This document shows, in pieces, positions 12,001-13,412 of a DNA stretch of 64,000 nucleotides (positions are counted from its first letter, which is position 1; each line of letters starts with the position of its first letter). The DNA is from Escherichia coli (GTDB lineage: Bacteria; Pseudomonadota; Gammaproteobacteria; Enterobacterales; Enterobacteriaceae): assembly GCF_017348835.2 (NCBI RefSeq), contig NZ_CP071375.1. One strand, 5' to 3'. Position numbers: made by a program.

Positions 12001-13412
12001 GTCGGCAGCCCGGCGAAAGCGATTCGTGAACTCAGTGAGCAGGAGCTGGCATGGAAAAAGCAGGGCACGCATGAGTATCAGGTGCTGGTGACACGCTGTA
12101 AGCAGACGTTGCATCAAGTTGAGCCATTGCGGGAAGTTGAACCGGACAGAAAACGTCTGGTATTTGATGAAAATCTGCGACCAAAACAGTAACGTCCAGA
12201 TACTGAACATTCTAATTTTTAGCATGTGATCCCTAAACCGCAACCCTGATACAGGTTGCGGTTTTTTTATTGCCGGATGCGGCGCTTTACGCGTTTTGTT
12301 TTGGTGTCTTTCAGGACAATAGAGCAACTCATCCAGTAATCTTGTTTACACCTTCGCATTATTTATCTCTTTTCGTTTCTATACTGATTTTTCTTAATCC
12401 GTTTTATTACAGGGCAGGGTGCGATGAGCAGCAATACATTTACTCTCGGTACTAAATCCGTTAACCGTCTTGGTTATGGCGCGATGCAACTGGCAGGTCC
12501 TGGGGTTTTTGGCCCCCCAAGAGATCGTCATGTCGCTATAACTGTGCTGCGAGAGGCGCTGGCATTGGGCGTCAATCACATTGATACCAGCGACTTTTAT
12601 GGTCCGCACGTCACCAATCAGATTATCCGCGAAGCGCTTTATCCTTACTCTGACGACCTGACAATTGTCACTAAAATTGGTGCGCGGCGTGGAGAGGACG
12701 CTTCCTGGTTGCCCGCCTTTTCTCCGGCAGAGTTGCAAAAAGCGGTGCACGATAATCTACGTAATCTCGGCCTGGACGTACTGGATGTGGTTAACCTGCG
12801 CGTTATGATGGGGGATGGTCATGGCCCAGCGGAAGGATCGATTGAGGCCAGCCTGACCGTGCTGGCAGAGATGCAACAACAAGGCTTGGTAAAACATATT
12901 GGCCTGAGCAACGTCACACCGACGCAGGTTGCAGAGGCGCGTAAGATTACCGAAATCGTCTGTGTGCAGAACGAATACAACATTGCTCATCGTACTGATG
13001 ACGCAATGATTGATGCTTTGGCCCGCGAAGGCATTGCCTATGTGCCGTTCTTCCCGCTCGGGGGCTTTACGCCGCTGCAATCCTCTACGCTGTCGGATGT
13101 TGCTGCGAGCCTGGGTGCAACACCCATGCAGGTGGCGCTGGCGTGGCTGTTACAACGTTCACCGAATATTTTGCTGATCCCAGGGACGTCTTCTGTTGCG
13201 CATTTACGGGAGAATATGGCTGCTGAAAAATTGCATCTTTCTGAGGAAGTGTTGTCTACGTTGGATGGTATTTCGCGAGAATAACGAGCCAGACGCTCGC
13301 ATATTGTGCTTAAGGAAGATCACAAAGCGATGCTGAAATTATGGGAAAACAGGTAAGTGGATTGAGATGTGGACTGAAGATCTACAGTCCACATCTAGAC
13401 CGTGTCCGGTTA

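Follow-up and report, generated by a model that had tools for sequence, protein, structure and literature searches.

How did the stop codons of paaY and azoR, 17,193 bp apart in Escherichia coli K-12, come to lie 1,217 bp apart in the strain studied here, and is the short form original or a product of loss? The locus lies in what we call the window, the whole stretch of 64,000 nucleotides that was analyzed. An earlier note, made from the sequence alone, had described a compact paaY-ydbC-azoR arrangement at this place (ydbC is now named pdxI) and had taken it as the mark of a non-MG1655 background. The non-MG1655 background is supported: the whole 64-kb window is colinear with positions 2440843–2504842 of the pig isolate PE164 (NZ_CP114128.1; diarrhoea and blood, China), and they differ at two of the 64,000 bases, at window positions 1095 and 14300. 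Because of this colinearity, the PGAP annotation of PE164 could be transferred coordinate by coordinate. The following features were distinguished (window positions):

11602–12192, plus strand: paaY, last gene of the phenylacetate (paa) cluster, intact (ORF; TIGR02287; same coordinates annotated in PE164)
12193–12215, plus strand: scar of junction 1, composed of 6 bp of junction filler and a 17-bp ydbA 3' remnant
12199–12215, plus strand: the 17-bp ydbA 3' remnant, GATACTGAAC-ATTCTAA, with the ydbA stop TAA at 12213–12215
12216–12423, plus strand: kept ydbA-pdxI intergenic region, colinear with positions 14015–14221 of the K-12 stretch L001 (207 bp in K-12)
12235–12264, plus strand: former ydbA intrinsic terminator, a stem-loop with a T run to 12271 (terminator scan, folding)
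12424–13284, plus strand: pdxI (formerly ydbC), aldo-keto reductase, 286 codons, intact (ORF; Pfam; K-12 orthology)
13285–13287, plus strand: junction 2, 3-bp microhomology CGA, 7,045 bp lost
13285–13356, plus strand: ynbD 3' remnant, 72 bp, encoding RARRSHIVLKEDHKAMLKLWENR and a stop, a non-functional fragment (translation compared with the K-12 YnbD C-terminus)
13365–13396, no strand assigned: hairpin with a 12-bp stem, the original element between the ynbD and azoR termini (folding)
13410–14015, minus strand: azoR (formerly acpD), FMN-dependent NADH-azoreductase, 201 codons, intact (ORF; Pfam; PE164 annotation)
14216–18118, plus strand: hrpA (ORF)

The paaY-pdxI spacer is 231 bp long (12193–12423) and the pdxI-azoR spacer 125 bp (13285–13409); the earlier note had given the second length exactly and was one base short for the first, at 230 bp. 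PaaY scored 378.6 bits against the NCBIfam equivalog TIGR02287, above the cut-off of 319.6. PdxI is a full-length orthologue of K-12 b1406, identical at 282 of 286 residues with no gaps (99%), and its residues 15–284 match the Pfam family Aldo_ket_red (4e-50). Going by its annotation, it would be a pyridoxal reductase or pyridoxine 4-dehydrogenase. AzoR matches Pfam Flavodoxin_2 (2.5e-53), and its scores against the three matching NCBIfam azoreductase models were all below their cut-offs, so that the assignment was made by orthology with K-12 azoR (b1412), of which the gene is a full-length orthologue differing at 15 of 606 nucleotides; the PE164 azoR product is WP_000048948.1. No Rfam family was matched at gathering thresholds within 12193–13409; the Rfam matches of the 64,000-base window, sok and RydC, lie outside this interval. 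A scan of 12100–14300 for the sigma-70 consensus gave no site upstream of pdxI and one site in total, against 2.9 expected.

The gene order of MG1655 in its RefSeq record is paaY, ynbG, ydbA, pdxI, ydbD, ynbA, ynbB, ynbC, ynbD, azoR, hrpA; IS2D and IS30C break ydbA, a pseudogene, into three fragments. The order that the earlier note had given for K-12, with an IS-disrupted ydbA before ydbC and ydbD plus ynbABCD after it, matches this record. Comparison of the window with the MG1655 stretch by blastn revealed three colinear blocks: window 8001–12193, matching K-12 to one base beyond the paaY stop; window 12206–13287, whose K-12 counterpart begins with the final 10 bp of ydbA and extends 3 bp beyond the pdxI stop; and window 13285–20000, whose K-12 counterpart begins 72 bp ahead of the ynbD stop. 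The two K-12 intervals absent from the window are 1465063–1474003 (8,941 bp, including 2,552 bp of IS2D and IS30C sequence) and 1475085–1482129 (7,045 bp). This alignment bears out both blocks that the note had reported missing: the window has no ydbA between paaY and pdxI and no ydbD-ynbABCD between pdxI and azoR. The IS2 and IS30 copies are merely a trait of the MG1655 ydbA pseudogene.

To describe the paaY-pdxI junction, we aligned five ydbA-less loci (the window, SMN013SH2, 18KM2445, E2348/69 and Rb-50). Where ydbA is intact at its 3' end (K-12, W46, NC101), this end reads ...GTGATGCTGAAC TTCAAGAAAAC GTTCTAA and is followed by the terminator, with about 207 bp to pdxI. In all five ydbA-less loci the paaY stop is followed by CGTCCAGAT(G/A)CTG(A/G)AC(G/A)TTCTAA and then by the same terminator and upstream region. 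The ydbA-less type of junction, ...GATGCTGAAC-GTTCTAA, or CAGAT(G/A)CTG(A/G)AC(G/A)TTCTAA with its variable positions, corresponds to the end of ydbA, with the terminal Phe codon and the stop, minus 11 bp. Since K-12 has CAGATG directly after the paaY stop, the two sides seem to have been joined at a 4-bp GATG microhomology, a reading of the alignment that carries no statistics. The former ydbA terminator (-19.4 kcal/mol, z = -5.6) now stands 43 bp past the paaY stop. Junction 1 is a deletion scar and not an ancestral absence. The small size of its remnant, 17 bp interrupted by a gap of 11 bp, counts against the deletion account.

At the pdxI-azoR junction, the K-12 sequence is TAA-CGA-ATATAC after pdxI and ATATT-CGA-GCCAGA inside ynbD, and the window reads TAA-CGA-GCCAGA. 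In ynb-bearing genomes, ynbD likewise has ...TATATT-CGA-GCCAGACG 72 bp before its stop, where the window reads TAA-CGA-GCCAGACG. The genes ydbD, ynbA, ynbB and ynbC are lost together with most of ynbD and with the pdxI terminator, which in K-12 is AAAAGGGAAAGATGCATTTCCCTTTTTTT. The Pfam DSPc domain of K-12 YnbD takes up residues 306–429 of 430, and the 72-bp remnant falls within it. As the remnant is part of this domain and not flanking DNA, the ydbD-ynbABCD block was once present and was later lost. PGAP labels the ynbD fragment a partial CDS in PE164 and in F2_81 (NZ_CP043542.1; pig rectal swab, Australia). The hairpin at 13365–13396 (-23.5 kcal/mol, z = -3.5 on the plus strand; -24.6 kcal/mol, z = -4.6 on the minus strand) is found downstream of ynbD in K-12, SMN013SH2, AST85 and STEC276 as well, and is the first strong structure now downstream of pdxI. 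From left to right, the window has the pdxI stop of the ...ISRE type, CGA, the ynbD 3' fragment and the ynbD/azoR hairpin. No extended homology beyond that of shuffled sequences was detected within 60 bp on either side of the breakpoints: the local alignment scores were 15 (direct) and 16 (inverted), and the shuffles had a mean of 15.4 and a standard deviation of 2.4.

To get insight into the polarity of both changes, outgroups were collected by a PdxI scan of species-representative genomes, followed by tblastn with the K-12 and NC101 neighbours. The gene order was paaX-paaY-(ydbA-like)-pdxI-azoR-hrpA in Pseudocitrobacter faecalis, ydbA-pdxI-azoR-hrpA in the divergent Escherichia SCPM-O-B-8794, pdxI-azoR-hrpA in Kluyvera, ydbH-pdxI-azoR-hrpA in Enterobacter sp. 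ENT03 and ydbH-ydbL-pdxI-ydbD... in E. albertii. The order paaY-ydbA-pdxI was seen in a single outgroup, Pseudocitrobacter, where the identity of the ydbA-like gene is no more than about 40%; this genome supports an ancestral position of ydbA between paaY and pdxI, and hence deletion over a gene never gained.

The 3' end of pdxI was found in two forms. A ...KAG-stop end together with a terminator of about 40 bp, CCTCCC...GGGAGG, that abuts azoR was present in Pseudocitrobacter, SCPM-O-B-8794 and the B2 E. coli strains NC101, Rb-50 and E2348/69. An ...ISRE-stop end is common to K-12, E. albertii and the window, and the ...DGISRE-stop of the window is the type that goes with the ynb-bearing haplotype. 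Because outgroup genera and B2 E. coli have pdxI directly beside azoR, the ydbD-ynbABCD block is probably a later insertion in the Escherichia lineage, acquired along with the new pdxI 3' end; its G+C content is 0.466, against 0.52–0.54 in the neighbouring genes. The ancestral-type junction was looked for in the window and was absent, both the pdxI 3' end and the spacer being different. Thus, a compact pdxI-azoR junction is ancestral according to the outgroups, but it is of a different, remnant-free type, and the compaction seen in the window is a secondary loss. Junction 2 itself is a deletion scar, a secondary loss inside the insertion; the ancestral state was not simply kept here, and the insertion was not excised precisely.

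The compact arrangement very probably arose by two separate illegitimate deletions at short microhomologies in a region of variable gene content, with no new functional element. Both deletions and their polarity we regard as demonstrated. The first took almost the whole of the giant autotransporter gene ydbA together with its promoter and ynbG, and spared the final 17 bp of ydbA, the ydbA terminator and the pdxI upstream region; it is an old allele, carried by about a third of E. coli. The second removed the 7,045 bp between the CGA just past the pdxI stop and the CGA that precedes the ynbD stop by 72 bp. Replication slippage or illegitimate recombination at 3–4 bp of microhomology may have been the mechanism in both cases.

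It might be argued instead that the compact form is ancestral, the lineage never having had ydbA or ydbD-ynbABCD, and that K-12 gained them by insertion. The adjoining pdxI and azoR of Pseudocitrobacter, Kluyvera, Enterobacter sp. ENT03 and B2 E. coli point in this direction, as does the lower G+C content of the ydbD-ynbABCD block. However, the window lacks the junction that such a history would have left (pdxI ...KAG-stop with the ATAAAAAACCTCCC...GGGAGG terminator) and has in its place the ...ISRE-stop end and 72 bp of ynbD coding sequence from the DSPc domain; it also retains the ydbA stop codon and terminator, and Pseudocitrobacter carries a ydbA-like gene between paaY and pdxI. We therefore consider ancestral compactness highly improbable. 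That adjacent deletions mediated by IS elements made both gaps would agree with the frequent presence of IS at this locus elsewhere (IS2D and IS30C in K-12 ydbA, ISEc13, IS1, IS1414), but the window joins unique sequence to unique sequence at both places and has no IS or IS end at either, so this origin is extremely improbable. At neither junction in the window was an IS sequence, an extended repeat or an Rfam family found.

Within the two-deletion explanation it can be asked whether junction 2 was formed once. The window-type and W46-type deletion alleles have breakpoints that are the same to the base and flanks of different haplotypes, and identical breakpoints in two diverged alleles are not explained by a single random deletion alone, which speaks against the explanation that we prefer. 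Over its 72 positions, the ynbD remnant of the window shows one difference from the intact ynbD of SMN013SH2 and 17 from W46 (five substitutions and a 12-bp gap), and several of the W46-type bases are standing ynbD polymorphisms that also occur in K-12 or AST85. The block may have been lost independently at least two times at exactly the same nucleotides, in the lineage of PE164 and F2_81 and in a lineage with a 60-bp remnant. In favour of this are the identical breakpoints of remnants that follow different ynbD haplotypes, and an 8-bp inverted match, CGAATATA / TATATTCG, situated exactly at the two breakpoints. Against it, the direct microhomology is only 3 bp, and neither direct nor inverted alignments of the breakpoints score better than shuffles, so that the inverted match is without statistical support; moreover, the deletion could have happened once, with the remnant overwritten afterwards by gene conversion from ynb-bearing donors. 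One old deletion whose flanks were later replaced by recombination also fits, and such overwriting is possible because pdxI is visibly mosaic. On balance we hold a repeated loss to be unlikely. If it did occur, it would point to a deletion hot spot or repeated selection against the ydbD-ynbABCD operon, and the similarity of the pdxI-azoR spacing to the ancestral one would be convergent. A patch of pdxI SNPs at 12942–13071, common to the window and the W46-type, was considered as a marker of shared ancestry and was rejected: the same bases are found in the ynb-bearing AST85 and in E. albertii, and the patch is therefore an ancestral polymorphism and not diagnostic.

The frequency of each junction was determined in 5,426 complete E. 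coli genomes, a genome being counted when one place covered at least 80% of the query. Some part of the 2.4-kb query was matched in 5,420 of them. The ydbA-less junction 1 was present in 1,837 genomes (34%), the ancestral-type pdxI-azoR junction in 643 (11.9%), the remnant-bearing junction 2 in 145 (2.7%) and the whole paaY-azoR stretch with both compactions in 10 (0.18%). With 1,837 of the 5,426 genomes carrying it, the ydbA-less junction alone is hardly a background marker; the right-hand, pdxI-azoR deletion is the rarer marker of the two. Of the 145 genomes that match the junction 2 query, two are 100% identical to the window (an allele share of 0.04%), and the other matches listed (58 of the remaining 143) are about 91% identical to the query. 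The ynbD remnant is 12 bp shorter in all three of the other junction-2 genomes inspected (W46, ST2747 and 18KM2445). Among the other eight genomes with the whole stretch, the three inspected (18KM2445, E2348/69 and Rb-50) keep only a paaX fragment and paaY. Full-length paa together with the absence of ydbA and the ynb deletion with a 72-bp remnant was found, among the inspected genomes, only in PE164 and F2_81.

Other rearrangements were observed at the same locus. In E2348/69, ISEc13 sits in the pdxI-azoR spacer; STEC276 has an IS1-associated loss of the paaY end, pdxI and the 5' end of ydbD; GPEC673 has IS1414 at the locus; and in NC101 paa is wholly absent. Goldstone et al. (2016, PMC4951805) had previously described the region from paa to ydbA as genomically heterogeneous and gave a frequency of about 42% for full-length ydbA in phylogroup A. 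Concerning the population genetics of ynbABCD, the literature gave nothing specific beyond this heterogeneity and the regulation of ynbA by BglJ-RcsB.

As for the consequences, paaY transcripts would now end at the former ydbA terminator, and pdxI, which keeps its upstream region, would be read through the ynbD remnant to the ynbD/azoR hairpin. The strain would be expected to lack the YdbA autotransporter and the YdbD and YnbABCD proteins. The lost YdbD/YnbABCD proteins are named in RefSeq as a DUF2773 protein or 'bactofilin', a CDP-alcohol phosphatidyltransferase, a CDP-diglyceride synthase-like protein, a hydrolase/methyltransferase and a PAP2/DSP phosphatase. The products of the ydbD-ynbABCD operon have domains like those of phospholipid enzymes. 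The ynbA promoter is a BglJ-RcsB target, and the operon is activated by BglJ-RcsB (PMC3950696).

The arrangement is an ordinary strain-to-strain polymorphism of gene content, already deposited in two complete genomes, and the variability of the ydbL-azoR region in E. coli has been described previously. The lost genes (ydbA, ydbD, ynbABCD) are non-essential and poorly characterised, and their absence has little import beyond strain typing, for which the remnant-bearing pdxI-azoR junction offers a compact and rare strain marker. The locus displays three states, namely ancestral compact, insertion-bearing and secondarily deleted, and PE164-like strains are natural knock-outs of ydbA and ydbD-ynbABCD with a decaying paa pathway.

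Comparison with known loci places the window closest to PE164 and F2_81. The paaY-azoR stretch (2,414 bp) is 100% identical in both, with the same junctions and the same 72-bp remnant; an assembly artefact was rejected on the ground that two independently sequenced complete genomes are identical over these 2,414 bp. A TAG nonsense codon in paaK is common to the window and both genomes. PE164 differs from the window by TAG at paaA codon 13 (CAG in the window) and by CGC at hrpA codon 29 (AGC in the window), whereas in F2_81 paaC, which has a frameshift in the window, is intact, paaZ contains an internal stop and hokB is followed by an additional IS481-family element.

The allele with a 60-bp remnant (143 genomes by count) has its junction 2 breakpoint exactly at TAA-CGA-G, as in the window, but its ynbD remnant is 12 bp shorter and its junction query only about 91% identical. 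Among its carriers, ydbA is still present in W46, and PGAP places an autotransporter gene next to pdxI in ST2747; in 18KM2445, ydbA is absent, but almost the entire paa cluster is gone as well. The ancestral-type junction of NC101, Rb-50, E2348/69, SCPM-O-B-8794 and Pseudocitrobacter faecalis resembles the window in that pdxI adjoins the convergent azoR with no ydbD-ynbABCD in between; unlike the window, it has the ...KAG-stop form of pdxI (867 bp) and a spacer of about 40 bp without a ynbD remnant. In K-12 (b1400–b1412), the flanking genes agree with those of the window in order and orientation, with 96–98% nucleotide identity, and the two have the pdxI upstream region and the ynbD/azoR hairpin in common, whereas K-12 has in addition ynbG, the ydbA pseudogene with IS2D and IS30C, the pdxI terminator, ydbD and ynbABCD.

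Two genes of the phenylacetate (paa) cluster are disrupted in the window. In paaK (9256-10569), a nonsense change from GAG to TAG at codon 251 of 437 creates a stop at 10006-10008, and the gene is annotated identically as a pseudogene in the pig isolates PE164 and F2_81; the phenylacetate-CoA ligase step has probably been lost through this stop. In addition, paaC (2296-3041) carries a frameshift caused by a 1-bp deletion near position 2493, relative to F2_81 and the comparison strain SMN013SH2, and the gene is likewise frameshifted in the PE164 annotation. Because the paaC frameshift and the paaK stop are combined, the sequence suggests that the paa pathway is decaying in the lineage of the window.

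The whole 64 kb differs from PE164 at just two positions, 1095 and 14300. The former lies in codon 13 of paaA, which reads CAG (Gln) in the window versus a TAG stop in PE164; therefore, paaA is intact in the window. The latter lies in codon 29 of hrpA, which is AGC in the window and CGC in both PE164 and F2_81. Accordingly, the window represents either a third strain closely allied to these two or a different version of an assembly.

Comparison with strains W46 and 18KM2445, which carry the allele with the 60-bp ynbD remnant, revealed that the breakpoint of the ydbD-ynbABCD deletion (13285-13287) is the same in two diverged alleles, with remnants of 72 bp and 60 bp, whose flanking sequences belong to different haplotypes. 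The common breakpoint may have had one origin followed by gene conversion, or it may have arisen recurrently.

At gathering thresholds, Rfam gave no matches in the whole window beyond the following two:

22599-22662, minus strand, RydC sRNA (92.5 bits)
23222-23373, minus strand, sok, the antitoxin RNA belonging to the hokB locus (108.1 bits)

Two further regions were noted from the PE164 annotation:

34314-36863, between ydcL and ydcO: a tnpA of the IS200/IS605 family, interrupted by an internal stop and adjoining an insQ/TnpB-family RNA-guided endonuclease gene
~58930-64000: a small island of the type VI secretion Vgr/Rhs type, with an Rhs-annotated protein, Vgr, a DcrB-related protein and a truncated DUF6531 protein; it borders an arylamine N-acetyltransferase gene that is truncated at its 5' end and lies upstream of yddE

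Close relatives of PdxI, the aldo-keto reductase encoded by pdxI (formerly ydbC), are patchily distributed, judging by the top 80 matches out of at least 594. Within these 80, the Enterobacteriaceae are represented by Escherichia, Pseudocitrobacter, Kluyvera and Enterobacter only, Serratia is the sole further enterobacterial genus, and no Salmonella or Citrobacter loci occur. Further down, identity drops to 71-79%, in numerous matches from Rhizobiales, Burkholderiales and myxobacteria.

The locus is rearranged in other ways in other E. coli strains. In E2348/69 (L006, 4687-6286), ISEc13 sits within the ancestral pdxI-azoR terminator and is flanked on each side by CACTTTCGTG; in STEC276 (L012, 2173-2920) an IS1 stands in place of the 3' end of paaY, pdxI and the 5' end of ydbD.
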